Origin: a virus
Taxonomy: Duplodnaviria > Heunggongvirae > Uroviricota > Caudoviricetes
Direction: 5' to 3' (one strand)
DNA length: 22,017 nucleotides
Virus record (IMG/VR): IMGVR_UViG_2585427734_000004
In this document: positions 1-19,184 of the stretch, piece after piece
How the letters are laid out: each line of letters opens with the position of its first letter
Position numbering within the stretch: position 1 is the stretch's first letter
The notes under the pieces: model-generated
Told to the model about the DNA's origin: nothing
Database searches by the model: none
What the model saw: the letters and a program-made list of their open reading frames with translations, nothing else
Program-made: the position numbers and the translations under genes

Positions 1-1053
1 TTACGGGGTAATACCAACCGCTGCCGCCACTTTGTCGCCACTTGGCAGCGTTGCCAGAGGATTGAAACGGAGCGCCGTTTCCAGATGATCCGGTGCCAGA
101 TGAGCGTAACGCATAGTCATTTTTATATCGTGATGTCCGAGGATTTTTTGCAAAGCAAGGATATTTCCACCCGACATCATGAAATGCGCCGCAAACGTAT
201 GGCGCAGAACGTGTGTCAGTTGACCGCGAGGGAGCACGATTGACGTTTTTTCCATCACGGATAAAAATTGAAAATAGCAGTCTGTGAAGAAATTGAACCC
301 ATCAAGCGCCATGATCTCTTCGTAAAGCTCTTTACTGATAGGGATGCTTCTGTTTTTCTTCCCCTTCGTTCTTACAAAGGTAATTCGGTATTTGGTCACC
401 TGTGAGCGGGTAAGATTTACGGCTTCTCGCCAGCGTGCGCCTGTGCTTAAGCATATCTTAACTACCAGTGCCAGAATTGGGTCCTGACGTTTGCAATCAG
501 CCAGTAATTCAACAATCTGCTCATGGGTAAGCCATGCCATCTCTTTTTCTGCGATGGTGAATTTTCGCATGTTCTCCAGTGGGTTCGGATACGACCATTC
601 GCCCAGGCGGGATAGTTCGCTAAAAACACTACTTAGATAGCTTTGCTCCAGGTTAATGGTGACCGGGCTTGCTCCTTTCTTCCATTTCTCGCTGAAGTAG
701 ATCTCACCTGTCAGGCGTTTATCTCGATAGTGGGCAAACATTTTAGAGGTTAGATCAGTTGCAAGGGGATTGCCCAGAGCGTCAACCATCAGCAGCAATT
801 TGTCATAGACATGCTGCCCAGCTGTCAGTGATTTACCATGTAGTTTGAACCATAGCTCAACCACGTCTTTCAGTGTTCGACGATCCACTGATTCACCTAG
901 CCAGGGCTTTGCTTCGGTTTCTTCCATCGTGTGACGCTCAAAAGCCAGTGCTTCGCCTTTGGTGGCGAATTGTTTACGCACACGACGCCCACTTCGTCCG
1001 GCGGGGTAACATTCGCAAAGCCATTTCCCTGTGGTGAGTTTTCGTACTGCCAT
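1..1053 (-). CDS. int: Tyrosine recombinase / phage integrase
   Basis: Minus-strand ORF with C-terminal HVLRHTFAAHF...GHHDIKMTMRYAHL (R, HxxR and Y catalytic box). Start set at internal ATG 1053 (MAVRKLTTGKW...), which has a GGAGGG RBS 9 nt upstream; the 402-aa track ORF is an upstream in-frame extension. Confidence 0.9.
   Translation of the reverse strand: MAVRKLTTGKWLCECYPAGRSGRRVRKQFATKGEALAFERHTMEETEAKPWLGESVDRRTLKDVVELWFKLHGKSLTAGQHVYDKLLLMVDALGNPLATDLTSKMFAHYRDKRLTGEIYFSEKWKKGASPVTINLEQSYLSSVFSELSRLGEWSYPNPLENMRKFTIAEKEMAWLTHEQIVELLADCKRQDPILALVVKICLSTGARWREAVNLTRSQVTKYRITFVRTKGKKNRSIPISKELYEEIMALDGFNFFTDCYFQFLSVMEKTSIVLPRGQLTHVLRHTFAAHFMMSGGNILALQKILGHHDIKMTMRYAHLAPDHLETALRFNPLATLPSGDKVAAAVGITP
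19..40. repeat. Putative attL core (cgctgccgccactttgtcgcca)
   Basis: 21 of 22 positions identical to 19163-19184 in direct orientation. Lies inside the 3' end of int, which is common when int abuts attP. Confidence 0.55.
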
Positions 1054-1241
1054 AAAAAATGCCCTCCAGTGGAGAGCATTTTTACTGTATACATAACCAG
1101 TGTCAATGTATGAAATCCTACGACCATACATCTCACTGAAGCCATAATGAAGTTGGCTATTCTTTTTGCTATGTGAGCATGTAACTTTTGCGGTTAACCT
1201 GCGGCTCATTTTTATTTTAGACGCAGATATAAAAACAAAAG

Positions 1242-1433
1242 TTATCGTGAGTTTTTAGTACAGATTTTTTTGGATTTACTAATAGTTCCATCATTGCAAA
1301 CGAATTTGCCATCTGAGGTACAGTGAGAAACACCTCCCTTTTTCCCTGAGCAGGGATAATTTCTAGCATAGGTAGTTAGTGGGTTTAATAACAAAGAACA
1401 TGACAAAACCACAAAAAATACCTTACCAAGCAT
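1242..1433 (-). CDS. Small secreted cysteine-rich protein (63 aa), hypothetical moron
   Basis: GGGAGG RBS 7 nt upstream of the ATG; N-terminal hydrophobic signal-like segment ([23 protein letters not shown]) followed by 6 Cys; AT-rich, unlike the flanking phage genes. Confidence 0.45.
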
Positions 1434-1448
1434 AGTTTCCTCCCGGTA

Positions 1449-2105
1449 CTATTTAACATACTTGACTGTTAAACTTATAATTTTACCAATTATTTCAATG
1501 TCTTCTATCTTGCATTCGAAGGCTCTGTTTCCACCCTCGACGAAGATTCTTCCACCGGGTAAACGAGTAATGTCACGGATCGTTATTTCGCCATCAATAC
1601 TTATTACCCATTTACCATCACGTATATCATCAAATTCTTTATCACAAATAAATTCAGAATTGTTATCTGTGATGACAAAAGGTTTTTTAAACGTAGAGGG
1701 TAGAAATCCCTTATCAAAAATATAAAAACCGTCTTTCTGCAATGCTCCATCAGACAATAAATATTTTTCTACTTCTATAGTATTTGTATTTGCTGATGCT
1801 TGCTTTGAACCATGCCCTGTTGTTAGCCAATTAAGCGAGGTGCCCGTTTCAAGGGCGCACTGGATTACCCAATCTGCTGGAAAAATATCACGCATATAGC
1901 GCGTTGCCATGGTGCTCTTAGAAACACCTAAATGATCACAGAGAGCCTGACGAGTACCGAACCCATATGCTTCAACTAAACGTTCTATGGCTTTCTTACC
2001 GCCGCTATTGAAATCCACAAGTCCTCCAAAGAAATCCAAAATTCGTTGACAGATTCCAAAAGCGATCTTAAAGTTGAACCAGAAGTGTTCTTTTGGAGCC
2101 TTCAC
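1449..2105 (-). CDS. CI-like immunity repressor (HTH)
   Basis: Transcribed divergently from the early operon, directly upstream of int as in phage 186. HTH-like segment QALCDHLGVSKSTMATRYMRD. Apparent GTG start at 2105. Confidence 0.7.
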   Translation of the reverse strand: MKAPKEHFWFNFKIAFGICQRILDFFGGLVDFNSGGKKAIERLVEAYGFGTRQALCDHLGVSKSTMATRYMRDIFPADWVIQCALETGTSLNWLTTGHGSKQASANTNTIEVEKYLLSDGALQKDGFYIFDKGFLPSTFKKPFVITDNNSEFICDKEFDDIRDGKWVISIDGEITIRDITRLPGGRIFVEGGNRAFECKIEDIEIIGKIISLTVKYVK

Positions 2106-2163
2106 TACTAATCACGACAAACAACGGCTCGCCAAAAGCCATATCTAGAAGGAATGTTGCCTT
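2106..2163. promoter_or_regulatory. Divergent lysis-lysogeny switch region (repressor vs early operon)
   Basis: 58-bp intergenic region between divergent cI-like and apl/cox-like starts; operators not resolved. Confidence 0.4.
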
Positions 2164-2367
2164 ATGACACCTAACATTTCAATTACTCTGAATACACCAC
2201 ATGTCACAATCGAACGTTATAGCGAACTGACTGGCCTTTCTATTGATACGATTAACGACATGTTGGCTGATGGCCGACTACCTCGTCATCGTCTTCGTAA
2301 AGACAAAAAACGTGAAAAGGTAATGATTAACCTGGCTGCTCTGACTGTTGATGCTTTGTCTGCTTAA
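2164..2367 (+). CDS. Apl/Cox-like small DNA-binding regulator / excisionase
   Basis: 67-aa basic protein, first gene of the rightward early operon opposite the repressor. Assignment is by position and size. Confidence 0.55.
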
Positions 2368-2431
2368 TAGACGTCTATTTTCGCAATAAGACGCTGAGTT
2401 CGATTTTGCGATAAGTTCGGAGTTGAAAACC

Positions 2432-2941
2432 ATGTTTGATTACCAAGTTTCCAAACATCCACATTTTGATGAAGCCTGTCGTGCATTCGCACTGCGCCAC
2501 AATCTGGTGCAACTGGCAGAACGTGCGGGCATGAATGTGCAGATTCTGCGGAACAAGCTGAACCCAGCTCAACCTCATTTATTAACCGCACCAGAAATCT
2601 GGCTGCTTACCGATCTGACTGAAGATTCAACGTTGGTAGATGGTTTTCTGGCACAGATTCATTGTCTGCCATGTGTACCGATTAATGAGGTAGCAAAAGA
2701 GAAACTGCCACATTACGTCATGAGTGCAACCGCAGAGATCGGGCGTGTTGCTGCAGGTGCGGTATCTGGCGATGTAAAAACCAGTGCAGGTCGTCGTGAT
2801 GCTATCAGCAGCATTAACTCTGTAACACGACTGATGGCGCTGGCGGCTGTTTCATTGCAGGCCCGTTTACAGGCTAATCCTGCGATGGCGAGTGCAGTTG
2901 ATACCGTGACTGGCCTCGGTGCTTCATTCGGTTTGCTGTGA
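2432..2941 (+). CDS. CII-like regulatory protein
   Basis: ORF after apl; ATG at 2432 with GGAG RBS (the track start at 2423 is TTG). Position and size match 186 CII. Confidence 0.55.
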
Positions 2942-2948
2942 GGTGCTT

Positions 2949-3245
2949 ATGCTGACGAAAGAACCATCATTTGCATCGCTGCTGGTAAAACAAAGCCCGG
3001 CAATGCACTACGGTCACGGCTGGATCATGGGTGAGGATGGTAAACGCTGGCATCCGTGCCGTTCACAAGATGAATTGCTGTCTGAATTGACCACGGGGAA
3101 ACGGAGAAAGTCAAAATGTATGCAGCGGAAAGTGAAGTGGATTATCAGTTTCGTTACAGAGGGGAGAGTTATTCAGTACCTGAAGATGATTTGCTCTGTT
3201 GTTATCCGTCGTTGTCGGGCGATGGCAGTTACTTTTTCACGCTAA
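2949..3245 (+). CDS. Hypothetical early protein (its 3' part overlaps the next ORF in another frame)
   Basis: ATG 2949 with GTGAGG RBS. The first ~55 aa look protein-like; the remainder overlaps ORF 3116-3340 and looks like an out-of-frame read. Confidence 0.3.
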   Translation: MLTKEPSFASLLVKQSPAMHYGHGWIMGEDGKRWHPCRSQDELLSELTTGKRRKSKCMQRKVKWIISFVTEGRVIQYLKMICSVVIRRCRAMAVTFSR

Positions 3246-3340
3246 AGGATGGGACGTTTTTACGGGGAGAGCAGGTTAAAGAGACGATACGAAAAAATGT
3301 ATCTCCTCTTGAACGTTACCGTAAGAACAAAGAACGATAG
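3116..3340 (+). CDS. Hypothetical small acidic early protein
   Basis: 74-aa ORF with GGAG upstream and natural composition; sits where fil/orf78-like genes lie in P2/186. Confidence 0.45.
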   Translation: MYAAESEVDYQFRYRGESYSVPEDDLLCCYPSLSGDGSYFFTLKDGTFLRGEQVKETIRKNVSPLERYRKNKER

Positions 3341-3362
3341 TTGCGTTTTGGGGATATGAATT

Positions 3363-3704
3363 ATGGCAATTAATGGCGCTGCGGCGACTGTTCCATTAAG
3401 CCCCGGTGAACGCCTGAATGGACTTAATCACATTGCGGAGTTAAGGGCGAAAGTTTTTGGCCTGAATATTGAGTCAGAGCTTGAGCGGTTTATTAAAGAT
3501 ATGCGTGATCCACGGGATATCAATAGCGAACAAAATAAACGGGCACTGGCTGCCATATTCTTTATGGCAAAAATTCCAGCTGAACGTCATAGCATCAGCA
3601 TTAATGAGCTGACCACTGACGAAAAGCGGGAGTTGATTAAAGCAATGAATCATTTTCGTGCAGTGGTGAGCTTATTTCCCAGACGGCTAACCATGCCGAA
3701 TTAA
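3363..3704 (+). CDS. Hypothetical phage early protein
   Basis: 113-aa ORF with RBS, in the same operon. Confidence 0.55.
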   Translation: MAINGAAATVPLSPGERLNGLNHIAELRAKVFGLNIESELERFIKDMRDPRDINSEQNKRALAAIFFMAKIPAERHSISINELTTDEKRELIKAMNHFRAVVSLFPRRLTMPN

Positions 3705-3771
3705 CCAGCTAATGAAATTAATGGCGTAAACCCGCCGGGCATCCCTTTATCTAAATTCAGGAGAATTGATT

Positions 3772-4005
3772 ATGCGTAATATTGAAACCCTCACGACTAA
3801 AACCGGACCGGATGACGCAGGGCTTAATATTTTACTGACAGAGGCTCGTCTGGAAGAACGCCGGGCAAGGGCTGAAGCAATGGCTGCCCGCCTTGATAGT
3901 CTTGCGTGTCATATCACATCCCGCCAGCTAAACCACGTCGAAGCGGCAGAACTGCTGCGTGTGACCGCTGAAGCAATCCAGAACGAAGCGCAGGAGATCC
4001 ACTAA
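3772..4005 (+). CDS. Hypothetical phage protein (DUF2732-like)
   Basis: ATG 3772 preceded by CAGGAG; helical, Ala/Glu-rich small protein; its stop overlaps the next start (TAATG). Confidence 0.55.
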   Translation: MRNIETLTTKTGPDDAGLNILLTEARLEERRARAEAMAARLDSLACHITSRQLNHVEAAELLRVTAEAIQNEAQEIH

Positions 4006-4232
4006 TGGCTGATGCAATGGATCTCGTACAGCAGCGCGTTGAAGAAGAACGCCAGCGCCATATCCGTGCTGCCCGTGCCAAAACACCGGGCGTGTCTCGC
4101 GTGCTTTGCATTGAATGTGATGCGCCAATTCCGCCAGCACGCCGCCGCGCCATTCCAGGAGTGCAGCTTTGCATTACCTGTCAGGAAATCGCAGAGCTGA
4201 AAGGCAAACATTACGACGGAGGTGCTGTATGA
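4005..4232 (+). CDS. TraR/DksA-family C4 zinc-finger protein
   Basis: C-terminal CIECDAPIP...x17...CITCQ pair of CxxC motifs; typical P2 orf82-like position just before gene A. Confidence 0.75.
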
Positions 4233-4531
4233 CAGGGGCTGTGCGTATCCATCAATTAAAAATTGCACCTAAGTATTTCAACGCTGTGGTTGCAGGTCAA
4301 AAGACGGCTGAACTTCGTAAAGACGATCGTGGCTATAAAGTTGGTGATGTTCTTTCTCTTTGCGAATGGAAGCATGGCGTATTTACGGGTAGGGAATGGG
4401 CCGCGGTTATCTCTCATGTGCTTCCGGTTAATGACGTGATGGCAGTTTCAGAACAATGGGTGATGCTATCAATTCGCTCATTAACCCCATTAGAAGCTTT
4501 AGGATATGTTATTGCAGGAGGTGCTGTATGA
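4229..4531 (+). CDS. DUF3850 / ASCH-like (PUA-fold) protein
   Basis: N-terminus [33 protein letters not shown] resembles the DUF3850 signature; ATG overlaps the upstream stop (ATGA). Confidence 0.6.
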
Positions 4532-5385
4532 GCACCATCCTGAAATGGGCGGGTAATAAAACCACCATTATGTCCGAACTGAAAAAATACCTTCCTGCTG
4601 GCACGCGACTGGTTGAACCTTTCGCGGGTTCTTGTGCTGTGATGATGGAGACGGATTACCCCAGCTATCTGGTTGCGGATATTAATCCTGATTTAATCAA
4701 CCTCTATAAAAAGGTTGCTGCTGATTGTGAGGCGTTTATATCTCGTGCCAGAGCTTTATTTGAGGAAGCAAACAGAGAGGTGGCTTATTACAACATAAGG
4801 CAGGAGTTTAATTACTCCACTGAAATTACTGATTTCATGAAAGCGGTATATTTTCTGTATCTCAATCGTCATGGTTACCGTGGGCTATGTCGCTATAACA
4901 AGAGCGGGTATTTCAACATTCCCTACGGTAATTATAAAAATCCGTATTTCCCTGAAAAAGAAATTCGCGCATTTGCAGAGAAAGCCCAGCGGGCAACGTT
5001 TATCTGCGCCAGCTTTGATGAAACGCTGGCGATGTTGAAGGCGGGGGATGTGGTGTATTGCGATCCGCCTTATGACGGTACGTTTTCCGGCTATCACACT
5101 GATGGCTTCACTGAAGATGACCAGTATCACCTGGCATCCGTTCTTGAACATCGATCATCTGAAGGTCATCCGGTCATTGTTTCTAACAGTGACACATCCC
5201 TGATCCGTTCGCTGTATCGCAATTTTACTCACCACTACATCAAGGCAAAACGCAGCATCGGCGTGGCAGCTGGTGAGAGTAAATCTGCAACAGAAATCAT
5301 CGCTGTTTCCGGGCCGCGCTGCTGGGTAGGATTTGATCCTTCGCGTGGCGTGGATTGTTCCGTCGTGTACGGAGTGCGTGCATGA
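4528..5385 (+). CDS. dam: DNA adenine methyltransferase (Dam-like, N6-adenine MTase)
   Basis: LKWAGNK...[12 protein letters not shown]-binding motif and DPPY catalytic motif; start overlaps the upstream stop. Confidence 0.85.
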
Positions 5386-7796
5386 GCCATGCTGATATGA
5401 ACAACTGCAGCGGCTTTAACGAGGTCGCCGCAGCATTCTCATGGAACAGCCCGAAAAAGGCCATTAACCCTTATCTGGACCCGGCGGAAGTTGCGCCGGT
5501 TTCTGCGCTTTCAAACCTGATCACTCTGTACGCTGCCGATAACGAGCAGGAACAACTGCGCCGCGAGGCACTGAGTGATCAGGTCTGGGAGCGTTATTTC
5601 TTTAATGAATCCCGTGATCCTGTCCAACGCGAAATGGAGCAGGATAAGCTAATTAGCCGGGCAAAGCTGGCGCATGAGCAGCAGCGTTTTAATCCAGACA
5701 TGGCCATTCTGGCGGACGTCAACGCCCAGCCTTCCCATATCAGCAAGCCGCTGATGCAACGTATTAAATACTTCAGCAGCCTGGGCAGGCCAAAGGCTTA
5801 TTCCCGCTATTTGCGTGAGACGATTAAGCCATGCTTGGAACGACTGGAGCATGTACGCGACAGTCAGCTATCCACTTCTTTTCGCTTTATGGCAAGCCAT
5901 GAAGGGCTGGACGGCCTGCTGATCCTGCCTGAAATGAGTCAGGATCAGGTGAAACGCCTGTCCACCTTGGTAGCTGCGCATATGAGCATGTGCCTTGATA
6001 CAGCTTGTGGCGATTTGTATGCCACCGATGATGTTACGCCAGAAGAAATCCGCAAGACATGGGAAAAGGTGGCAGCGGAAACCCTGCGTCTGGATGTTAT
6101 CCCGCCTGCGTTTGAGCAACTCTGTCGGAAAAGAAACCGCCGTAAACCCGTGCCTTATGAACTCATTCCGGGTTCGCTGGCGCGTATGTTATGCGCCGAC
6201 TGGTGGTATCGGAAATTATGGAAGATGCGTTGCGAATGGCGGGAAGAGCAGTTGCGTGCTGTTTGCCTGGTCAGCAAAAAAGCATCTCCCTATGTCAGCT
6301 ATGAAGCTGTGATGCATAAACGTGAGCAGCGCCGTAAGTCGCTGGAGTTTTTCCGTTCTCATGAACTGGTGAACGAAGACGGCGACACGCTGGATATGGA
6401 AGACGTGGTAAACGCCAGCAGCAGCAACCCTGCGCATCGCCGCAATGAGATGATGGCCTGTGTTAAAGGTCTGGAGCTTATCGCGGAAATGCGTGGTGAC
6501 TGCGCCGTTTTCTACACCATCACCTGTCCGTCACGTTTCCATTCCACGCTAAATAACGGCAGGCCCAACCCGACCTGGACAAATGCGACGGTAAGACAAA
6601 GCAGTGATTATCTGGTCGGTATGTTTGCTGCATTTCGTAAGGCGATGCACAAAGCCGGATTACGCTGGTATGGCGTGCGGGTGGCTGAGCCGCATCATGA
6701 CGGTACAGTTCACTGGCACCTGTTGTGTTTTATGCGCAAAAAAGATCGCCGCGCCATTACTGCTTTGTTGCGTAAGTTTGCCATTCGTGAAGACCGCGAG
6801 GAGCTGGGTAATAACACGGAACCACGCTTTAAGTCTGAGCTGATAAACCCGCGCAAAGGTACGCCAACAAGCTACATCGCGAAATACATCAGTAAGAACA
6901 TTGACGGGCGTGGTCTGGCTGGCGAGATCAGCAAGGAAACGGGTAAATCCCTGCGTGATAACGCCGAATACGTTAATGTCTGGGCGTCTCTGCATCGTGT
7001 TCAGCAATTCCGCTTCTTTGGCATTCCGGGGCGTCAGGCTTACCGTGAACTGCGATTGCTGGCTGGTCAGGCGGCAAGGCAACAGGGTGACAAAAAAGCA
7101 GGTGCGCCGGTACTGGATAACCCGCGTCTTGATGCCATTCTGGCTGCTGCGGATGCTGGTTGTTTTGCCACCTACATCATGAAGCAGGGCGGCGTACTGG
7201 TTCCCCGTAAATATCACCTCATCAGAACCGCTTATGAAATCAACGAAGAGCCGACCGCCTATGGCGATCACGGCATTCGTATTTATGGCATCTGGTCACC
7301 CATTGCAGAGGGCAAGATCTGCACTCATGCAGTGAAGTGGAAAATGGTTCGTAAAGCCGTTGACGTTCAGGAGGCGGCAGCCGACCAGGGCGCTTGCGCC
7401 CCTTGGACTCGTGGCAATAACTGTCCCCTTGCTGAAAATTTGAACCAACAGGAGAAAGATAAATCAGCTGATGGGGACACTAGAACGGACATTACCCGCA
7501 TGGATGACAAGGAGTTGCACGATTACCTGCACAGTATGAGCAAAAAAGAGCGCCGGGAACTGGCAGCAAGGTTACGCCAGGTGAAGCCGAAAAGGCGTAA
7601 AGACTACAAACAGCGAATTACAGATCATCAGCATCAGCAGCTCGTCTATGAACTGAAGTCCAGAGGATTTGATGGCAGCGAGAAAGAGGTCGATTTACTC
7701 CTTCGCGGTGGCAGTATTCCGTCAGGAGCAGGCCTGCGTATCTTCTATCGGAACCAGCGTTTGCAGGAAGATGATAAGTGGCGGAACCTGTATTAA
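5382..7796 (+). CDS. A: Replication initiation protein gpA (rolling-circle, HUH endonuclease)
   Basis: ~804-aa ORF. HUH-like VHWHLL motif and paired tyrosines SYIAKYISK, as in P2 gpA; start ATG 5382 overlaps the dam stop. Confidence 0.85.
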
Positions 7797-7908: not shown

Positions 7909-7949
7909 GTTATGTATACAGTATTGCTTGTGGTGTTATAGGAGGAAAG

Positions 7950-11429: not shown

Positions 11430-12109
11430 AATATCTATCTAGGCAAATGCCAGGGCCTTCCGTTCTTAATAAATTTGACTATAGGAGGGATGATTGGAAT
11501 TCCCTATCATCAAATGATAAAAAAGAAATATGGGAAGAAATAATAAAAATGCAAGGTAAATTATGTGCTTATTGCGAGAAAAAAATAGAGCATCATAAAA
11601 GTGGTGACAAAAATAAAGTTGAGAGGCATATTGAGCATTTTTACAGGAAAAGTTATTACAAAAATTTAACTTTCGAGTGGTCTAATTTGTTTGGCTCATG
11701 TGGTGAGCCGCAAAGGTGTGGGTTTTATAAGGATAAGCAAAAATATAACGATGATGATTTAATTAAAGCTGATAGACAAAATCCAGATGTTTTTTTCCAT
11801 TTTTTGGAAAATGGTGATGTTCATATTAGAGAAGGCTTGAATGAGAAAGAACACAAAATGGCAGAGGTTACGTTAAGAGTATTTAACTTAAACCCGTCCT
11901 CAGGAGGAGTCAAGGCGGAAAGAAGACGTGCAATAGAATTAAGCATGACATTAATAAAGGAACTGGTCGGATGTGCATCTCAGCTTATTGAATCAGGATG
12001 TGAAATTGAAGATGTTAGATCTATGGTCTTTGATGAGTTTAAAAAGAATGTAAAAGATAGATGCTTTACCACTGCGATAAAGCATGTTTTTGAGAATAGA
12101 ATGCCTTAA
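11426..12109 (+). CDS. HNH endonuclease (PtuB-like) retron effector component
   Basis: CAYCEKK...HIEHF HNH-like Cys/His motifs; ATGA overlap with the ATPase stop. Confidence 0.75.
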   Translation: MKYLSRQMPGPSVLNKFDYRRDDWNSLSSNDKKEIWEEIIKMQGKLCAYCEKKIEHHKSGDKNKVERHIEHFYRKSYYKNLTFEWSNLFGSCGEPQRCGFYKDKQKYNDDDLIKADRQNPDVFFHFLENGDVHIREGLNEKEHKMAEVTLRVFNLNPSSGGVKAERRRAIELSMTLIKELVGCASQLIESGCEIEDVRSMVFDEFKKNVKDRCFTTAIKHVFENRMP

Positions 12110-12190
12110 AGGTTAGAGGGATGTATATATAATTAATCTATATTATATTCTGAGAAATTGATAATATGCATCCCTATCCACTGATTAAAT

Positions 12191-12652
12191 TCATGGATTT
12201 TTTTTTTGTAGAGGTACTAATTCATTTGTCACAAAAACCTTACTAGCTTTCTCCACATCCCCAAACCCCCCAACATTATTCGGCATAATCCCCATCATTT
12301 GCGGCGGCACACGGTGTGCCGCCATCATGTCGTCCCGGCTCACGTTCTTGATATTCAGAAATTCATCCTTCGCTGCAACTTCTGACAACGGGATGATCTG
12401 AAGCCCGTCCTTTTTGCCGTTAGGCGAGTACATAAACAAGTTACGGAAGTTGCCCGGTCCTTTGGCGCTTTTCATCGCGTTGCGGAGGTTGTTCACATCC
12501 TCCTGGTTCTGCGCGGCGTCAGTCATATACATGATGAAGCCTGCATGACTGCCGTTAATGTAATACTTGCGGCGGAACAGCGTGGCGGACTCGTTGAGCA
12601 GGGCTGACGGAATGGCAGAAAGATAAGTTTTTTCTAACGGAGCACGGCTCAT
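12191..12652 (-). pseudogene. Capsid portal (gpQ-like) C-terminal fragment; terminase gene absent
   Basis: Minus-strand ORF whose 5' end overlaps the O start codon, leaving no P-O intergenic promoter; no Walker A, so not a terminase N-terminus. The Q assignment is by position and elimination. Confidence 0.35.
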
Positions 12653-13484
12653 GACAGTGAAAGCAAAGCGTTTTCGCATCGGGGTGGAAGGTGCCACCAC
12701 CGACGGACGCGAAATCCAGCGTGAATGGCTGGAACAGATGGCAGCCAGCTACAACCCGGCGGTGTACACCGCGCTGATTAACCTTGAGCACATCAAGTCT
12801 TATCTGCCGGACAGCACCTTTAACCGCTACGGCAAGGTGACGGCGCTGTTTGCTGAAGAAATCACGGAAGGTCCGCTGGCAGGCAAGATGGCATTGTATG
12901 CCGACGTTGAGCCAACGGAGTCCCTGGTGGAACTGGTGAAAAAAGGCCAGAAATTATTCACCTCTATGGAAGTCAGCCCGAAGTTCGCTGATACGGGCAA
13001 AGCCTCCCTGGTTGGCCTGGCCGCCACTGATGATCCCGCCAGTCTGGGTACGGAAATGCTGACATTCAGCGCCAGTGCAGCCCATACCCCGCTGGCAAAC
13101 CGCAAGCAGAATCCCGCCAATCTTTTTACCGCTGCAGAGGAAACGGTGATCGAACTGGAAGAAATCCAGGAGGACAAGCCGTCCCTGTTTGCCCGTGTCA
13201 CGGCGCTGTTTACCAAAAAAGAGCAGTCCGATGACGCCCGGTTCTCTGATGTGCATAAGGCCGTGGAGCTGGTCGCCACTGAGCAGCAGAACCTGAGCGC
13301 ACGCACCGAAAAATCCCTGTCTGAGCAGGAAGAACGCCTGTCTGAGCTGGAGACTGCTCTGCAGGAGCAGCAAACCGCCTTAAACGAACTGGTGAATAAG
13401 CTGAGTCATGAAGACAGCCGCCAGGACTACCGCCAGCGTGCAACAGGCGGTAACGCCCCCGCTGACACTCTGACCAATTGCTGA
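12651..13484 (+). CDS. O: Capsid scaffolding protein gpO
   Basis: N-terminus FRIGVEGATTDGREIQ...INLEH...SMEVSPKFADTGK...LVGLAATDDPASLGTE matches recalled P2 gpO (FRIGVEGDTCDGR...INLEH...LVGLAVTDDPASLGTE). Confidence 0.8.
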   Translation: MTVKAKRFRIGVEGATTDGREIQREWLEQMAASYNPAVYTALINLEHIKSYLPDSTFNRYGKVTALFAEEITEGPLAGKMALYADVEPTESLVELVKKGQKLFTSMEVSPKFADTGKASLVGLAATDDPASLGTEMLTFSASAAHTPLANRKQNPANLFTAAEETVIELEEIQEDKPSLFARVTALFTKKEQSDDARFSDVHKAVELVATEQQNLSARTEKSLSEQEERLSELETALQEQQTALNELVNKLSHEDSRQDYRQRATGGNAPADTLTNC

Positions 13485-13500
13485 TGGAGCACAAAACCTG

Positions 13501-13890
13501 ATGAAGAAGAATACCCGCTTTGCTTTTAACGCTTACCTGCAGCAACTGGCACGTCTGAACGGTGTGGCAGTTGAAGAACTGTCCAGCAAGTTCACTGTAG
13601 AGCCGTCTGTGCAGCAGACGCTGGAAGACCAGATCCAGCAGTCCGCCGCTTTCCTGACGCTGATTAACGTCACGCCAGTGCCTGAGCAGTCCGGTCAGCT
13701 GCTGGGGCTGGGTGTTGGCAGCACCATTGCCGGAACCACTGACACCACCGCGAAAGAGCGTGAACCTGTCGATCCGACGCTGATGGTCGATGTGGAATAC
13801 AAATGCGAACAGACCAACTTTGACACGGTGCTGACCTACGCGAAGCTGGACCTGTGGATCAGGCAACGCCGCGCACTAACGGTGATCTGA
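13501..13890 (+). pseudogene. N: Major capsid protein gpN, N-terminal ~120 aa only
   Basis: TRFAFNAYL...NGV...SKKFTVEPSV...LDLW matches the recalled P2 gpN N-terminus (TRFKFNAYL...KKFTVEPSV...LDLW), then diverges and stops; full gpN is ~357 aa. Confidence 0.6.
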
Positions 13891-13974
13891 ACGCGTTGCT
13901 GGATGAAACGGAGGCCGCCTGGGCGGTCTGTGCAGACAAAGTGGACATGATTATTGCGTGTCAGGAGCGAAACA

Positions 13975-14406
13975 GTGAACAAACCACAATCCCTGCGCCA
14001 CGCCCTCAATAAAGCAGTGCCTTATGTCCGCAATAACCCGGACAAACTGCATCTGTTTGTGGATAACGGTTCGCTGGTTGCCACGGGGGCCAGCTCCATG
14101 TCATGGGAGTACCGCTATACCCTGAACGTGGTGATTGAGGATTTCAGCGGCGACCAGAATCTGCTGATGGCCCCGGTTTTGCTGTGGCTGCGGGATAATC
14201 AGCCTGATGCCATCAATAACCCGGCGTTACGGGAAAAGTTATTCACCTTTGAGGTGGATATTCTGCGCAATGATGTCTGTGATATCAGCCTTAACCTGCA
14301 ACTGACGGAGCGTGTGCTGGTCAGCACTGATGGCAGTGTGTCGAGTGTTGAAGCTGTAGCGGAACCCGATGAACCTGAAGAAATGTGGACGGTGAAACGT
14401 GGCTGA
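13975..14406 (+). CDS. R: Tail completion protein gpR
   Basis: GTG 13975 with AGGAG RBS; KPQSLRHALNKAV...NPDKLHLFVDNGS...LWLRDNQPD resembles recalled P2 gpR (KPDSLRRALTDAV...NPDMLRIFVDNGS...AWLRENQPD). Confidence 0.7.
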   Translation: MNKPQSLRHALNKAVPYVRNNPDKLHLFVDNGSLVATGASSMSWEYRYTLNVVIEDFSGDQNLLMAPVLLWLRDNQPDAINNPALREKLFTFEVDILRNDVCDISLNLQLTERVLVSTDGSVSSVEAVAEPDEPEEMWTVKRG

Positions 14407-14845
14407 ATTGCAGAAGGTGGACGGCTGGTTGAGTGCCTTGCTGGCGAATCTGGAGCCAGCCGCAAGAAGCCGTATGATGCGCCAGCTGGCGCAAGAACTG
14501 CGCCGGACACAGCAGCAGAACATCAGGATGCAGCGCAATCCAGATGGCAGTAGTTATGAGCCGCGCAGAGTAACAGCACGCAGCAAAAAGGGGCGCATCA
14601 AACGTCAGATGTTTGCAAAGCTGCGCACCAAAAAATACCTGAAAACTGCCGCCAGCGCCGATTCTGCCAGCGTGCAGTTTGAAGGTAAGGTGCAGCGCAT
14701 TGCCCGCGTTCATCACTACGGCCTGCGTGATCGTGTTAGTCGTAAGGGGCCGGAGGTACGTTATGCTGAGCGGCGGCTATTGGGTTTCAACGATGAAGCT
14801 ACTCTTCAAATTAAGACAATTTTATCTAGTTACTTAATGGGGTGA
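14399..14845 (+). CDS. S: Tail completion / virion morphogenesis protein gpS
   Basis: GTG start overlapping the R stop; LEPAARSRMMRQLAQELRRTQQQNI...PDGS...GRIKRQMFAKLR...IARVHHYG fits the gpS virion-morphogenesis family pattern. The 3' end runs into AT-rich insert sequence. Confidence 0.7.
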   Translation: MAELQKVDGWLSALLANLEPAARSRMMRQLAQELRRTQQQNIRMQRNPDGSSYEPRRVTARSKKGRIKRQMFAKLRTKKYLKTAASADSASVQFEGKVQRIARVHHYGLRDRVSRKGPEVRYAERRLLGFNDEATLQIKTILSSYLMG

Positions 14846-14937
14846 AGATTCATGCTTTTGCTAGCTTCTACAAGGTTTTATGCTTCTAAACACTGTATGT
14901 TTAATTTGACATATAACTATTTGTACAAGCGGTGAGT

Positions 14938-16161
14938 ATGAAAAAGCAAGATGAGTCCCCCAAAGCTGATAAATCAAATTTAGATAAAAGTGAGTCTGAA
15001 CCACCAAAAGCGAACTCTATGGCAGATGCCATGGCCATAGCGGCAGAGGTTGCTACGACAGCAACGTCAGTTCAAACATCAACCTTTGCAATTATCGCGG
15101 ATTTTCTACGTTCAGGTGGTATAGAAAAACTAACTTCAAATGCTATCAAAAATTTAGAAATAAAAGTAAAGGGCCATTCTCAAGCGACAAGAACTACGGT
15201 ATTGAGGAACCTGAAGACCTCTTTCAAAGAGGAGAATTTAGTTCTTGTTTTAGGTGCTGGCATTTCTTTAGATTACAGCATACCAACATGGAGTGAATTA
15301 TTAAAGCGGCTATTGGCAAGAGCTTTGGATGATAAAAATGAAAATCAGAAAATGGTATCGGTTTTGTTTAATGAGGTTTTCGGTCCGAACGCACTCATAG
15401 CAGCCAGATATCTAAAACTACACTTTGATGGTATTAATACTCCCTTGGAAAAAGAAATTCAGCATGTTTTGTATGAATATTATCAGGAGGAAGAAAGCAG
15501 TACATTGAAAGCAATCAAGAAATTGTGCATATCGGCAGGCAAGTCACCAGGTCTAGATTCCGTTATTACATATAACTATGATGATATTTTGGAACAGACA
15601 TTAACTAGAGCTGATGTTGGTATAAAGTATAAGGTGATTTCAAAGACGGGACAGCATGCAAAAAATGATGAACTGCCGATCTACCATGTGCATGGCTATC
15701 TCCCATTGCAGGGGAAAGTTGAACTCGATGACACGCTAGTCCTTTCTGATGAAAGCTATCATAGGCAATACATGGATTTATACCATTGGAGCAATATGGT
15801 TCAGTTGAATAAATTCAAAGATGGTAATTGCCTGTTTGTTGGTCATTCCTTTACAGATCCAAACCTCAGAAGGTTGATGGATACAGCCAAAAAACTTAGA
15901 GGGAATGATTCTAAACCTCATTATTTAATTAAGTGTAGACATTCGAAAGAAGATGTGATTGCTAATATTCAAAGAATTGTTAGTGACTCAAGAAATGGAT
16001 TTGATAATAAACTGAATATTAATGAGGATGCAATCGCGACCTCTCTTTTACAGACAGTGCATACTTTTGAAGAAATCGATGCTAATTCATTTGGCGTGAA
16101 TGTTATTTGGATCGACTCTTACGATGAGATTGCACCAATACTTAATGATCTAACACAATAA
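14938..16161 (+). CDS. SIR2-family (SIR2_2-like) protein, candidate NAD+-depleting defence effector
   Basis: LVLVLGAGISLDYSIPTWSELL (GAGxS), VITYNYDDILEQ (TxNYD) and PIYHVHGYL (HxHG) motifs; low-complexity K/E/S/A/T-rich N-terminal ~90 aa; AT-rich gene in a GC-rich tail cluster. Start could also be GTG 14932 or ATG 15019. Confidence 0.75.
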   Translation: MKKQDESPKADKSNLDKSESEPPKANSMADAMAIAAEVATTATSVQTSTFAIIADFLRSGGIEKLTSNAIKNLEIKVKGHSQATRTTVLRNLKTSFKEENLVLVLGAGISLDYSIPTWSELLKRLLARALDDKNENQKMVSVLFNEVFGPNALIAARYLKLHFDGINTPLEKEIQHVLYEYYQEEESSTLKAIKKLCISAGKSPGLDSVITYNYDDILEQTLTRADVGIKYKVISKTGQHAKNDELPIYHVHGYLPLQGKVELDDTLVLSDESYHRQYMDLYHWSNMVQLNKFKDGNCLFVGHSFTDPNLRRLMDTAKKLRGNDSKPHYLIKCRHSKEDVIANIQRIVSDSRNGFDNKLNINEDAIATSLLQTVHTFEEIDANSFGVNVIWIDSYDEIAPILNDLTQ

Positions 16162-16238
16162 TCTCCCTAAGTTGTGCCAGAAATGGCACAGCTTTAAATC
16201 CTATCCTAATGACGGCAGCATTTGGCAATCTAATTGCC

Positions 16239-16454
16239 ATGAACGCTCAACTAACAGAAATCATGCGCCTTATCACCAATCTGATCCGCACTGGTGTAGT
16301 CACCGAAGTGGACCGGGAAAACTGGCTTTGTCGGGTGAAAACGGGCGACCTTGAAACCAACTGGATTAACTGGCTGACACTGCGCGCGGGCAAATCGCGC
16401 ACCTGGTGGAAAACTCACCATCGACTACGACTACACGCCAGTGCCGCCACTTGA
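16239..16454 (+). pseudogene. V: Baseplate spike gpV, N-terminal fragment
   Basis: [42 protein letters not shown] matches the recalled P2 gpV N-terminus (IRTGIIVETD...CRVQTG...WLQWLTHRAGRSRTWW), then diverges after ~60 aa and stops. Confidence 0.55.
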
Positions 16455-16524
16455 AAATCTGATGCTGCGCCAGCGCATCACCGATCAGTACCTGGTGAAT
16501 TTCGCAAGCCAGGTCAGCGCGTAA
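16387..16524 (+). pseudogene. Possible tail sheath (FI) C-terminal fragment
   Basis: A second frame reads ...[36 protein letters not shown] and stops 10 bp before the FII start with an RBS, the geometry expected for the end of FI. Identity is inferred from position only. Confidence 0.3.
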
Positions 16525-16533
16525 GGGGACAAC

Positions 16534-17049
16534 ATGGCTTTACCACGCAAATTAAAACATCTGAACCTGTTTAACGACGGGAACAACTGGCAGGGGATCG
16601 TTGAGTCGCTGACGCTGCCGAAATTCACCCGCAAATATGAGAAGTATCGCGGCGGCGGTATGCCGGGGGCGGTGGATGTGGATCTGGGACTGGATGACAG
16701 TGCACTGGATACAGAATTTTCCATTGGTGGTACCGAACTGCTGCTGTTTAAGCAGATGGGCAAATCCACGGTGGATGGCATCCAGTTGCGCTTTACCGGC
16801 TCTATCCAGCGTGACGATACCGGGGAAGTGCAGGCCGTGGAGCTTGTGGTGCGTGGACGTCACAAAGAAGTGGATTCCGGCGAGTGGAAGACGGGCGAAA
16901 GCAACACCACCAAAGTGACCAGTACCAACAGCTACGCGAAGCTGACCATCAATGGTGAGGTGCTCTATGAAGTGGACCTTATCAACATGGTGGAAATTGT
17001 GGACGGTGTGGACCTGATGGAAGCGCACCGCAACGCCCTCGGCCTCTGA
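16534..17049 (+). CDS. FII: Tail tube protein gpFII
   Basis: MALPRKLKHLNLFNDG...RGGGMPGAVDVDLGL...RDDTGEV...VRGRHK matches recalled P2 FII; AAGGGGA RBS. Confidence 0.85.
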   Translation: MALPRKLKHLNLFNDGNNWQGIVESLTLPKFTRKYEKYRGGGMPGAVDVDLGLDDSALDTEFSIGGTELLLFKQMGKSTVDGIQLRFTGSIQRDDTGEVQAVELVVRGRHKEVDSGEWKTGESNTTKVTSTNSYAKLTINGEVLYEVDLINMVEIVDGVDLMEAHRNALGL

Positions 17050-17103
17050 TGTATCTGAACGGCGCGGGATACCGCGCCAGAACCCAATTTACAGGACAAC
17101 AAA

Positions 17104-17406
17104 ATGAGCGATAAGCAGACTGAAAAGACCATTCAACTGGATACCCCTATCAAGCGCGGTAAAACGGAAATCACCGAAATTGTGCTGCGTAAGCCGCAGT
17201 CCGGTGCGCTGCGCGGCACGCGCCTGCAGGCCATTATGGATATGGATGTGAACGCGATGATGACCGTGATCCCCCGCATTTCCAGTCCGGTACTGACTGC
17301 ACAGGAAATCGCAGAGATGGACCCGGCAGATCTCACCGCTATGTCGGTTGAGGTTGTCACTTTTTTGTTGAAGAAGTCGGTGCTTGCCGGTTTACCGACA
17401 GCCTGA
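17104..17406 (+). CDS. E: Tail assembly chaperone gpE
   Basis: 100-aa ORF after FII containing the TTTTTTG slippery heptamer near its 3' end, the expected E/E' arrangement. Confidence 0.75.
   Translation: MSDKQTEKTIQLDTPIKRGKTEITEIVLRKPQSGALRGTRLQAIMDMDVNAMMTVIPRISSPVLTAQEIAEMDPADLTAMSVEVVTFLLKKSVLAGLPTA
17361..17367 (+). promoter_or_regulatory. Programmed -1 frameshift slippery site TTTTTTG (E to E')
   Basis: Heptamer located 37 nt before the E stop; the -1 frame is open from here to 17756. Confidence 0.6.
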
Positions 17407-17420
17407 CGGTTGACGATCTG

Positions 17421-17756
17421 GTGGCAGACATCGCCACCATTTTTCACTGGCCGCCATCCGTTACTGACGTTATGCCGCTGGAGCAGATGGCAGAACAGGG
17501 GAAAGCATGGCCTCTGATTGAAGGCAGCGGCACGATTTACGGCATGTATGTGATTGAGGGACTGAATCAGACTAAAACGGAGTTTTTCCGCGACGGTATG
17601 CCGCGCCGGATTGAGTTCACCCTGTCGCTCAAACGGGTGGATGAATCCCTGTCCGATATGTTCGGTGATCTCAGTGCGCAACTGAATAATCTGCAGGAAA
17701 CGGCAACATCTGCTTTAAGCGATATCAGTAAAACGGTGGGAGGGCTGCTGTCGTGA
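17421..17756 (+). pseudogene. E' extension continuing into a tail-protein U-like C-terminal segment; tape measure gene T absent
   Basis: -1 frame relative to E with no stop from 17361 to 17756; ends in a GTGA overlap with the D start. Only ~130 codons lie between the E slippery site and D, where P2 has T (~815 aa) and U. Confidence 0.45.
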
Positions 17757-18853
17757 ATTTCAGCTCTGAACTGCTTAACAAGGGCAACAAAACTCCCGCA
17801 TTCAGCATCAGTATTGAGGGCAGGGATATCACTACTGTCCTGGATAATCGCCTGATGAGTCTGACGCTGACGGACAATCGGGGCTTTGAAGCGGACCAGC
17901 TTGATCTGGAGCTGGACGACGCCGACGGAAAAATCGTGCTGCCGCGCCGTGGTGCGGTCATTACGCTGGCGCTGGGCTGGAAGGGGCAGCCGCTTTTCCC
18001 GAAAGGGGCATTCACGGTGGACGAGATTGAACACACTGGCGCACCGGACCGCCTGACTATCCGGGCGCGAAGTGCTGATTTTCGGGAAACGCTGAATCCC
18101 CGCCGTGAAAAATCGTGGCACAAGACCACGGTTGGGGAAGTGGTGAAGGAAATAGCTGCGCGTCACAAACTGAAGATGGCACTGGGTAAAGACCTGTCGG
18201 ATAAACCCGTGGATCATATAGACCAGACTAATGAGAGTGACGGCAGTTTTCTGATGCGGTTGGCGCGCCAATACGGTGCTATTGCGTCGGTGAAAAATGG
18301 CAATCTGTTATTCATCCGACAGGGACAGGGCAAAAGCGCCACTGGTAAACCACTGCCGGTGATCACTATCACACGCAAGGACGGCGACAGTCACCGATTT
18401 ACCCTGGCAGATCGCGGAGCCTACATGGGCGTAATTGCCAGCTGGTTGCATACCCGCGAACCTGCGAAGAAAGAAAGCACCACGGTGAAGCGTAAGCGCA
18501 GAACTAAGAAGCAGAAGAAAGAGCCGGAAGCGAAGCAGGGCGATTACCTGGTGGGTACGGATGAAAACGTGCTGGTACTTAATCGCACTTATGCCAACCG
18601 GAGCAACGCCGAACGGGCAGCGAAAATGCAGTGGGAACGCCTGCAACGCGGTGTTGCGTCATTCTCGCTACAACTGGCGGAAGGGCGGGCAGATCTCTAC
18701 ACGGAAATGCCAGTGAAAGTCAGTGGCTTTAAACAGCCGATAGATGATGCGGAATGGACTATTACCACCCTGACGCATACTGTCAGCCCGGATAACGGTT
18801 TTACGACCAGTCTGGAGCTTGAAGTGAAGATTGATGATTTCGAAATGGAATGA
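17753..18853 (+). CDS. D: Tail protein gpD
   Basis: LTLTDNRGFEADQLDLELDDADG...FTVDEIEHTGAPDRL...RSADFR...SW, KR-rich central linker and C-terminal TSLELEV match recalled P2 gpD; GTG start with GGTGGGAGGG RBS. Confidence 0.85.
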   Translation: MNFSSELLNKGNKTPAFSISIEGRDITTVLDNRLMSLTLTDNRGFEADQLDLELDDADGKIVLPRRGAVITLALGWKGQPLFPKGAFTVDEIEHTGAPDRLTIRARSADFRETLNPRREKSWHKTTVGEVVKEIAARHKLKMALGKDLSDKPVDHIDQTNESDGSFLMRLARQYGAIASVKNGNLLFIRQGQGKSATGKPLPVITITRKDGDSHRFTLADRGAYMGVIASWLHTREPAKKESTTVKRKRRTKKQKKEPEAKQGDYLVGTDENVLVLNRTYANRSNAERAAKMQWERLQRGVASFSLQLAEGRADLYTEMPVKVSGFKQPIDDAEWTITTLTHTVSPDNGFTTSLELEVKIDDFEME

Positions 18854-18943
18854 TTCTTCGCAATGGAGAACTTTTAAGTTTTCAAAATGGAATAATGCGG
18901 TATCATTATTGTGAATTTAGCAAAAATGGGGAGAACTCGAAAA

Positions 18944-19162
18944 ATGATGATTTGCCCACTGTGTGGAAGTGCCGCCCATACTCGCAGCAGTTTTCAGGTA
19001 TCTTCATTGACCAAAGAGCGTTACAACCAGTGCCAGAACATTAACTGCAGCCATACTTTTGTTACCCATGAAACTTTTGTTCGTTCGATTGCAACGCCAA
19101 AAGAGTCAAATCCGGTTCAGCCGCATCCAATGAAATCAGGACAGGTGGCGCTCTCTCTTTGA
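18944..19162 (+). CDS. ogr: Ogr/Delta-family zinc-finger late transcription activator
   Basis: MMICPLCGSAAHTRSS...ERYNQCQNINCSHTF...RPHP matches recalled P2 Ogr (CPLCQHAAHARTS...ERYHQCQNVNCSATF...RPHP). Confidence 0.8.
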   Translation: MMICPLCGSAAHTRSSFQVSSLTKERYNQCQNINCSHTFVTHETFVRSIATPKESNPVQPHPMKSGQVALSL

Positions 19163-19184
19163 CGCTGCCGCCAATTTGTCGCCA
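19163..19184. repeat. Putative attR core (cgctgccgccaatttgtcgcca)
   Basis: Direct repeat of 19-40 with one mismatch, starting immediately after the ogr stop. Confidence 0.55.

Follow-up and report, generated by a model that had tools for sequence, protein, structure and literature searches.

The 22,017-nucleotide stretch of DNA analyzed here (IMG/VR virus record IMGVR_UViG_2585427734_000004; Duplodnaviria, Heunggongvirae, Uroviricota, Caudoviricetes), in the following referred to as the window, carries a prophage of the 186/P2 type (Peduoviridae) that is integrated into an Escherichia coli chromosome. This element is very probably a recently gutted prophage that now represents a chromosomal island endowed with immunity and defense cargo. 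Four recent internal deletions have stripped it of the genes for packaging, the capsid shell, head completion, lysis, the baseplate, the fibers, the sheath and the tape measure, and the prediction that it can neither encode a virion nor lyse the cell is well supported by its gene content. It has apparently retained a complete apparatus for SOS induction, excision and replication, and it still encodes the CI repressor, the integrase, a Tum/DinI-like module, the replication endonuclease gpA, a cos-like site and the late activator Ogr. We regard the element as a clean and precisely mapped case of a P2/186-like prophage turning into a chromosomal defense island, in which the lethal and particle-forming functions are gone while immunity, replication and two anti-phage loci are kept in a circulating E. 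coli clone. Objects of this kind are well known and the retron cargo has already been characterized; the element is not a new kind of system.

Four internal deletions in a prophage at rybB

Positions 3501-22017 of the window are 100% identical to contig JOSQ01000083.1 of the E. coli assembly GCA_000713775.1, positions 1-17796 are identical to a stretch of the same contig that also provides the left flank of the element (locus L031), and the NCBI naming of a junction-spanning protein leads to the strain E. coli 8-415-05_S1_C1/C2. Exact look-up of the gpA allele led to this contig, for which the integrase and DUF3850 proteins are too widespread. The right end of the window is made up of the host genes rybB, ybjL, ybjM and grxA, no tRNA gene is present in the window, and the defective prophage occupies the 3' end of rybB, between rcdA and ybjL. 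Its integration target, the host small RNA gene rybB, is complete (19240-19318, minus strand; Rfam RF00110, 100.3 bits) and was the sole match in an Rfam scan of the window at the gathering threshold, a scan in which the retron msr family was not matched. A 14-bp direct repeat (AACAAAAAACCCAT) is found between rcdA and the integrase gene int, and again at the end of the rybB terminator, where it constitutes the attR core (19240-19253); the attL core lies 88 bp to the left of the window start, at position 4532 of L031. Integration regenerates a complete rybB gene, with the att core overlapping its terminator. The assignment of the attachment sites is validated by the empty site, rebuilt from the rcdA flank, a single core and the rybB flank, since this sequence is contiguous in 4,294 of 5,423 genomes; the rybB site is occupied or disrupted in ~21% of the complete E. 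coli genomes. An earlier sequence-only reading of the window had placed the remnant at 19-19184; the element is indeed there, but its ends are not, as it starts 88 bp to the left of the window and extends ~70 bp beyond position 19184 to attR. From attL to attR it measures ~19.3 kb, compared with 36.5 kb for an intact relative, the prophage of E. coli SC475.

In a megablast search of 5,426 complete E. coli genomes with the entire window as the query, no collinear 22-kb match was obtained; in the relatives that were recovered, the sequence of the window is spread over 34-39 kb, and the best of them was SC475. The intact SC475 prophage (NZ_LR778148.1, 2796116-2832471; locus L001), residing at the same rcdA/rybB site, was used as the reference for the deletions, and the status of the genes was judged by comparing each protein of this prophage with the translated window. 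When the window is aligned to the SC475 locus by pairwise BLAST, five collinear blocks emerge with four gaps in the window, corresponding to deletions of 2420, 3236, 6983 and 3336 bp that amount to 15,975 bp in total. Each junction contains a short microhomology (TAA, TGG, GGAAA and CTG; 3-5 bp each). Our own geometric estimate is that an overlap of at least 3 bp would occur by chance with a probability of ~0.05 per junction; since such overlaps are seen at all four of them, we consider this a real signature of microhomology-mediated joining, which points to illegitimate recombination or end joining. At four of the eight deletion endpoints (L001 positions 19496, 22730, 25287 and 36672), the motif GCTGG or the Chi-like sequence CCTGGTGG is no more than 10 nt away; an enrichment of Chi-like sequences at the endpoints is not claimed, as the signal is weak and post hoc, with P values between 0.01 and 0.1 depending on the search window used.

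Deletion 1 (2420 bp; TAA at 12624-12626) has removed the N-terminal part of the portal gene, the gene for the large terminase P and the pP/pO promoter region. What is left of the portal protein gpQ is its C-terminal part (amino acids (aa) 180-342; 12134-12626, minus strand), and a mere 24 nt remain upstream of the start codon of the capsid scaffold gene O, which is itself of full length (277 aa; 12651-13484, plus strand) and has lost its promoter. Within the portal remnant, the window possesses a run of ten T residues (12195-12204) where all other gutted copies and SC475 have nine, and this extra T shifts the frame, so that the open reading frame (ORF) calls differ (132 versus 153 aa). Deletion 2 (3236 bp; TGG at 13855-13857) has taken away the rest of the major capsid gene N, the genes for M, L, X, the holin, the lysozyme and LysB, and the N-terminus of LysC; the truncated N' ORF that spans the junction (13501-13890, plus strand) consists of the first 121 aa of N and of a tail that is read out of frame. 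Downstream of it, the tail completion genes R (13975-14406) and S (14399-14845) on the plus strand (13975-14845 in all) are both of full length.

Deletion 3 (6983 bp; GGAAA at 16408-16412) lies within the truncated baseplate ORF V' (16239-16454, plus strand), which retains 59 aa of V. The losses caused by this deletion include the rest of V, the genes W, J and I, the fiber gene H, the gene G, the invertible fiber segment, the invertase gene, the pF promoter and all but the last 38 codons of the sheath gene FI. The genes for the tail tube FII (16534-17049) and the tail assembly chaperone E (17104-17406) follow in full length on the plus strand (16534-17406). Deletion 4 (3336 bp; CTG at 17478-17480) has eliminated the C-terminus of E', the tape measure gene T and the N-terminus of U, leaving an in-frame E'::U' fusion ORF of 111 aa across the junction (17421-17756, plus strand) that carries the plain annotation 'phage tail protein' in NCBI records. 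Full-length genes for gpD (late control D/tail protein; 17753-18853, plus strand) and for the zinc-finger late activator Ogr/Delta (72 aa; 18944-19162, plus strand) follow.

Among the SC475 proteins, no match at all is present in the window for the large terminase P, the small terminase M, the head completion protein L, X, the holin, the lysozyme, LysB, W, J, I, H, G, the invertase and the tape measure T, and fragments represent the portal protein (aa 180-342), the capsid protein N (aa 1-121), LysC (aa 31-82), V (aa 1-59), the sheath protein FI (last 38 aa), E' and U (aa 67-161). A complete Peduoviridae late gene set is consequently not found, with Q, N, V, FI and U truncated and others absent, and the element is, as judged from this gene content, a defective derivative and not a functional member of the Peduoviridae: a prophage that lost its virion-assembly and lysis genes while integrated. 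The sequence-only reading had listed the terminase, most of the portal and capsid, lysis, the baseplate, the fibers and the tape measure as missing and had taken this to suggest that the remnant is unable to form particles. The comparison with SC475 bears out both statements, the genes for packaging, the capsid, head completion, lysis, the baseplate, the fibers, the sheath and the tape measure being absent or truncated. Nor do the missing structural genes reside elsewhere in the vicinity, because the source contig runs into host genes on both flanks. The alignment to related prophages that had been proposed in the same reading allowed all four deletion endpoints to be mapped, and the proposed comparison of the same locus in other E. 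coli genomes brought up the intact SC475 prophage and differently gutted relatives.

Compared with SC475, full length was found for Int (350/350 aa), CII (169/169), Dam (285/285), A (804/804) and Ogr (72/72), and for the cargo-encoded proteins RT (311/311), PtuA (544/544), PtuB (227/227) and SIR2 (407/407); further full-length ORFs are those for DUF5347, DUF2732, TraR, hyp62 (62 aa) and the DinI-like protein. These data confirm the earlier description of int, the repressor, the early operon, dam, A and ogr as full length, with the CI repressor being matched to intact relatives. The late genes O, R, S, FII, E and D, on which the sequence-only reading was silent, are of full length too, and they are without use once the other late genes are lost.

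Three of the four late promoters have been deleted. In the SC475 prophage, TGT-N12-ACA activator sites precede V and FI and are also found between P and O; the window has kept a single one of them, the perfect palindrome in front of V (TGTGCCAGAAATGGCACA; 16173-16190, plus strand), which is the pV activator site and the sole late activator site remaining. Deletion 3 has placed the end of FI, followed by FII and E, behind pV and V'. TGT-N12-ACA sites as such occur overall at the chance rate (five observed, ~5 expected), and another one, at 14894 before the SIR2 gene, was discarded as probably fortuitous, which leaves the palindrome at 16173 as the only credible site.

Copies of the gutted prophage and their age

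ORFs that span the junctions exist solely where the deletions exist, and they were looked up by exact sequence. The N' fusion (129 aa) was found in 156 index blocks and on 83 contigs, and the E'::U' fusion was recovered as well. The loci retrieved originate from three NCBI assemblies (GCA_000713775.1, GCA_025315335.1 and GCA_030511025.1) and from several unrelated Sequence Read Archive (SRA) runs assembled in Logan; all of them contain all four junctions and are 99.95-100% identical to the window. The element is inherited within one E. coli clone. An assembly artefact or a chimeric contig, in which the missing genes would have been collapsed or mis-joined, might be suspected in view of the 2014 draft assembly and of several private A-to-C differences that resemble sequencing errors. 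However, the four junctions are identical across research groups, assembly pipelines and unrelated sequencing runs, overlaps of 3-5 bp are far too short to cause assembler mis-joins, and the contig continues into host genes on both sides; such an explanation has practically no chance of being correct. The chimeric assembly that the sequence-only reading had envisaged as a potential refutation is ruled out by the identity of the junctions in independent NCBI and Logan assemblies.

When the private changes of the window are set aside, the gutted copies differ from each other at 0-1 sites over the 11-18 kb compared, and the blocks from O to V are 99.8-99.9% identical to SC475 at the nucleotide level. 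From this near-zero divergence of the copies and the close match of the O-to-V blocks to SC475 it follows that the deletions are very recent. Intermediates that carry some of the deletions only were not found among the 5,426 complete genomes or the contigs with junction ORFs; only differently deleted forms came up.

The differences private to this draft are located at positions 13006, 13087, 18098, 18426, 19278 and 19695, and they affect phage and host genes alike. Most of them are A-to-C changes before CC (or T-to-G changes after GG), they also occur in rybB and ybjL, and at these sites all other gutted copies share the state of SC475; position 19278 within rybB, for instance, is G in the window and T in the others. 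Taken at face value, the private differences would produce false amino-acid changes in O and D. An interpretation of these substitutions as decay under relaxed selection was rejected, since they are restricted to the draft and are likely to be sequencing errors or private mutations.

In two sister strains (SRR11015007 and SRR11015011), ogr has been disrupted behind its third codon by the insertion of a Mu-like prophage with HTH_35, a Mu transposase, MuB and Kil. The insertion point is position 11556 of locus L004 and position 11533 of locus L006 onward, corresponding to position 18953 of the window, and the insertion is a further decay step that took place after the four deletions.

Anti-phage cargo and the retained early arm

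Two AT-rich cargo loci (GC contents of 0.34 and 0.37, versus 0.50 for the rest) were described as apparently intact in the sequence-only reading, and this proved correct for all four genes concerned. The first is a type I-A retron operon (8860-12109, plus strand) that codes for a reverse transcriptase (RT; 8860-9795), the SMC-like ATPase PtuA (9795-11429) and the HNH nuclease PtuB (11426-12109). Assignment to type I-A is based on the presence, in one operon, of a retron-clade RT gene and adjacent genes for an SMC-like ATPase and an HNH nuclease, and of a structured msr/msd region directly upstream of RT. PADLOC recognizes RT_I-A (4.9e-131), PtuA (2.3e-193) and PtuB (6e-118), while in NCBIfam retron_St85_RT and PtuB score above the cut-off and PtuA reaches 471 bits against a cut-off of 500. 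The non-coding RNA (ncRNA) region (msr/msd; 8640-8859, plus strand) contains a perfect 28-bp hairpin (8721-8793) and has a minimum free energy of -108.6 kcal/mol (z = -10.3). A second perfect hairpin, AAAGCGCTATG ... CATAGCGCTTT, is present at 8811-8842, between the msd hairpin and the start codon of RT, and may be a 3' structure of the ncRNA or else a terminator/attenuator.

The RT protein is identical to chain E of PDB entry 9n69, and PtuA matches chain A of this structure in 541 of 543 aligned residues. By these protein matches, the first cargo locus is the structurally characterized type I-A retron of E. coli FORC 82 (PDB 9n69/9n6b/9n6c; Nat Commun 2025, PMC12475279). Both systems share the three-gene operon, the upstream ncRNA hairpin and near-identical proteins without any substantial difference; the present copy is housed in a gutted, rather than an intact, prophage. 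Retron-Eco7/Ec78 is more distant (RT, E ~1e-85), and Ec83 is a relative as well. In the FORC 82 system, the multicopy single-stranded DNA (msDNA) scaffolds a PtuA4-PtuB-RT complex; once this msDNA has been degraded by flap nucleases of the phages T3, T5 and T7, the HNH nuclease attacks tRNA-Ser and cleaves it (PMC12475279). The retron operon occupies a hotspot next to cos, between gpA and gpQ, that has been described before (Rousset et al. 2022, PMC9122126; Vassallo et al. 2022, PMC9519451).

The second cargo locus encodes a standalone protein of 407 aa (14938-16161, plus strand) with SIR2_2 as its only domain, and it is located between the phage genes S and V', at the position of P2 orf30. 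Its motifs GAGIS, NYD and HG align with the catalytic Asn/His region of ThsA, and it displays weak similarity to ThsA (1.8e-20), LmuA (9e-21), KomC and Dsr1 (1e-6). A SLOG domain, a TIR-domain ThsB partner, a DSR architecture of more than 1000 aa and an adjacent HerA gene were not found, which sets the protein apart from Thoeris (ThsA/ThsB), DSR1/DSR2 and SIR2-HerA. By virtue of the conserved catalytic motifs it is predicted to be an NADase-like protein outside the named systems. The exact protein is encoded on 744 contigs. Among the relatives, the S-V locus (14846-16238) constitutes a third variable cargo site, harboring genes for SIR2, DUF6216 or DUF6602, IS1, or hypothetical genes, and it does not coincide with the gpA-gpQ or the fun(Z) hotspot known from the literature.

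We propose that this lysogenic element acts as a chromosomal island in which CI would confer homo-immunity and the retron would provide anti-phage defense: the msDNA would be degraded by phage flap nucleases, and the HNH nuclease set free in this way would cut tRNA and arrest translation. The SIR2 protein would likely add an NAD-depleting type of defense. Most likely, the early arm and the cargo were spared by the deletions because losing genes for lysis and morphogenesis does no harm or is even of advantage, a partial loss of the immunity region would be lethal, and the cargo may be useful.

The early arm starts with the gene for a full-length P2-type tyrosine integrase (350 aa; 1-1053, minus strand; Int_N and Phage_integrase), at whose stop codon the window begins and which is 54% identical to the Int protein of 186. 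A P2-type integrase next to att and direct-repeat att cores on either side of the element are in keeping with an affiliation to the Peduoviridae, as are the full-length Phage_GPA (804 aa) and Ogr_Delta (72 aa) proteins for replication and late activation. Upstream of int, a LexA-like box (CTGTATACATAACCAG; 1085-1100) is situated between the -35 and -10 elements of a promoter-like site on the minus strand (1078-1106), which hints at a possible SOS control of integrase expression. A small YdcA-like ORF (63 aa; 1242-1433, minus strand; NF007463, Pfam YdcA) separates int from the gene for a 186-type CI immunity repressor (189 aa; 1449-2018, minus strand; Phage_CI_repr and Phage_CI_C), which is 33% identical to 186 CI and corresponds in length to the CI proteins of intact relatives. 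A promoter-like site in the cI/apl intergenic region (2046-2074, plus strand; TTGACA-17-TAAAGT, 10/12 matches) is, by virtue of its position, a candidate for the early lytic promoter (pR equivalent). The early operon that follows (2164-7796, plus strand), with all genes of full length, comprises a 67-aa ORF at the Apl/Cox position and the genes for CII, Fil, DUF5347, DUF2732, TraR/DksA, DUF3850/ASCH, the Dam methylase and the gpA replication endonuclease.

Relative to SC475, this arm is a mosaic. An additional DUF3850/ASCH ORF is present between traR and dam (4229-4531), and the immunity cassette (1113-2217) consists of the genes for the 189-aa CI protein and the YdcA-like ORF, where SC475 carries a 293-aa CI protein and two hypothetical genes; both variants occur in intact relatives. 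Behind the early operon lies an SOS module (7889-8382, plus strand) whose near-consensus LexA box (TACTGTAAATATAAACAGTG) is placed ahead of two ORFs, one of 62 aa and one that is DinI-like, as at the p95 SOS operon of 186; the DinI-like protein shares 41% identity with the C-terminal region of Tum, the antirepressor of 186. The cos-like site (8573-8611, plus strand) agrees with 13 of the 19 bases of 186 cos (the first 13) and with its left flank, the match extending from 8573 to 8598. It is conserved up to ~8611 in Fels-2, SopEPhi, RE2010 and in Klebsiella and Yersinia phages; the backbone homology ends at ~8611, and the variable cargo begins directly after it. No database record with ends at the cos-like site was found, and a 19-mer for P2 cos, with three mismatches allowed, was found neither in the window nor in SC475. 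A search with the P2 and 186 records located the cos-like site upstream of the retron, with its 3' third diverged.

Deletion placement and competing explanations

In a post hoc simulation with uniform breakpoints, four random non-overlapping deletions of the observed sizes spared the early arm, cos, the cargo and ogr with a probability of ~0.0015; the early arm alone was spared in 7% of the cases and the cargo alone likewise in 7%, and given that all four deletions fall into the late arm, the SIR2 gene is spared with a probability of ~0.13. The placement of the deletions therefore looks non-random. The genes O, R, S, FII, E and D have survived just as well as the cargo, so that intactness is no evidence of purifying selection and reflects the recency of the deletions instead. 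A survey of prophages found that lytic, packaging and release genes are lost preferentially, whereas the integrase and host-beneficial genes are kept (Khan et al. 2020, PMC7744054).

Independently gutted relatives are present at the same chromosomal site. The prophage of APEC O78 (NC_020163.1, 1629923-1643088; L035) and those of at least eight other complete genomes share with our element the integration site, an intact early arm, hotspot cargo and the U-D-ogr end, and have lost morphogenesis genes. They differ by a single large deletion, in place of four, that joins a portal fragment to the C-terminus of the tape measure, by a cargo consisting of a hypothetical protein and a TIR-domain protein, and by the absence of the S-V locus; the gutting of the APEC O78 prophage is an independent event. 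In locus L026, likewise at this site, a single deletion joins a portal fragment to the tape-measure or U region, and the early arm and an AIPR cargo are kept, while in E1433 a deletion from O to E is found in a prophage at the ssrA site. Intact progenitor-like, four-deletion and independently gutted forms thus coexist at rybB, and the locus could therefore serve to measure in experiments whether cargo, immunity or recency accounts for persistence. Bobay et al. are said to have described, in PNAS in 2014, a preferential loss of lytic functions in domesticated prophages. The placement of the deletions and the independently gutted relatives fit selection against lytic functions, for immunity, for the cargo or for both, and do so indistinguishably.

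One may go further and propose that selection maintains the remnant strictly for its retron and SIR2 cargo (and for CI immunity), so that deletions stop at the borders of the cargo. Deletion 1 ends in the portal gene ~0.5 kb from PtuB, deletions 2 and 3 flank an untouched SIR2 gene, independent remnants have kept hotspot cargo (the TIR protein of APEC O78 and AIPR in L026), and the retron is an experimentally active defense system. However, the two cargo-specific probabilities given above (~0.07 for no hit in the cargo and ~0.13 for the SIR2 gene) are weak, O, R, S, FII, E and D have stayed equally intact although they are useless, and the divergence of the copies is close to zero, so that purifying selection is not measurable; studies of cryptic prophages that detected such selection dealt with old remnants, and the present element is too recent for this test. 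Moreover, the SIR2 allele is about nine times more common than the gutted form (744 versus 83 contigs) and mostly found in longer contexts. We consider this strict form of domestication tentatively plausible, and the suggestion of the sequence-only reading that the element may be kept for its cargo is in this sense no more than plausible. A neutral and recent decay, in which drift or hitch-hiking fixed random deletions in a single clone, with chance and the selection of a striking case accounting for their late-arm position, would suit the very young age of the clone (0-1 real differences in 11-18 kb), the many other deletion forms in the species and the fact that the finding was chosen for its pattern. 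Yet none of the four deletions touches the 9.6 kb of early genes, cos, either cargo locus or ogr (P ~0.0015), the asymmetry recurs in independent remnants, and genes for lytic functions were the ones preferentially lost in the published survey (PMC7744054); we consider chance decay an unlikely explanation.

The element could also be a helper-dependent mobile island, a kind of proto-satellite of ~19.3 kb that is excised and replicated upon SOS induction and packaged by a co-resident or superinfecting Peduoviridae phage. The element has unmutated copies of all the cis- and trans-acting parts required for excision, replication and recognition of cos, but they are mere leftovers of the deletions that are common to intact relatives, and genes for capsid-size redirection or helper exploitation (sid, psu, delta, primase) are not found. 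P4-like satellites and phage-inducible chromosomal islands (PICIs) are in this respect different, as neither sid, psu, delta nor the primase alpha is encoded by any of the ORFs and what is left of the structural genes (O, R, S, FII, E and D) is of the ordinary helper type. At ~53% of the parental genome, a monomer of 19.3 kb would probably be poorly matched to packaging of the P2/P4 type, and a dimer would exceed the parental genome. In addition, ogr is disrupted by the Mu-like insertion in some sister strains that nevertheless still keep the element. Taken together, helper-dependent mobility of this kind is very improbable.

The reading that we prefer, a recently gutted prophage persisting as an island with immunity and defense cargo, has several points against it. 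The search yielded no intermediates that would put the four deletions in order or show them to be independent; the FII-ogr blocks of SC475 are only ~97% identical to the window, which makes SC475 a mosaic proxy and not a direct parent; the placement simulation was devised after the fact and assumes uniform breakpoints; the SIR2 protein attains weak scores at most against models of validated defense systems; and the expression and phenotype of the element are predictions from its sequence. The remnant might moreover not be inert: DNA damage might trigger its excision and replication as a non-lytic circle of 19.3 kb, which would transiently amplify the retron and SIR2 genes and perhaps be packaged by a related helper phage. 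The parts for such a process are both att cores, int, the ORF at the Apl position, the Tum-like module with its LexA box, gpA with its origin, the cos-like site, Ogr and pV. We regard this proposal as decidedly unlikely; if it were true, a prophage would have been caught in the act of becoming a defense-carrying satellite. A single end-joining event with multiple breaks might also have given rise to all four microhomology junctions. The sequence allows both an inducible or mobilizable island and a single multi-break origin, the support being the presence of the parts only.

The closest relative by location and cargo, the SC475 prophage, shares with the element the integration site and identical or almost identical integrase and cargo proteins (integrase 99.4%, RT 100%, PtuA 99.6%, PtuB 99.6% and SIR2 100% aa identity), and has its retron operon between the DinI-like and portal genes and its SIR2 gene between S and V. 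It differs in the presence of all morphogenesis and lysis genes on its 36.5 kb, in the lack of the DUF3850 ORF and in its immunity region with the 293-aa CI protein and two extra genes. The gene order int-cI / apl-cII-fil ... A / SOS operon / cos / Q P / O N ... D ogr/B / att is held in common with 186 and P2. Further shared features are regulation of the 186 type by CI/CII/Fil/Tum, an antirepressor module under LexA control, gpA as the replicase and a late activator of the Ogr/B type. Protein identities to P2 and 186 range from 31 to 69% (for 186: CI 33%, CII 69%, Fil 63%). In contrast to 186, the attB site is rybB instead of ileY, the last six bases of the cos 19-mer are different, and 16 kb of late genes are deleted. 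Among deposited phages, Klebsiella phage 4LV2017 and its relatives (Peduoviridae, Elveevirus) are closest at the DNA level, with ~95% identity over the shared parts.

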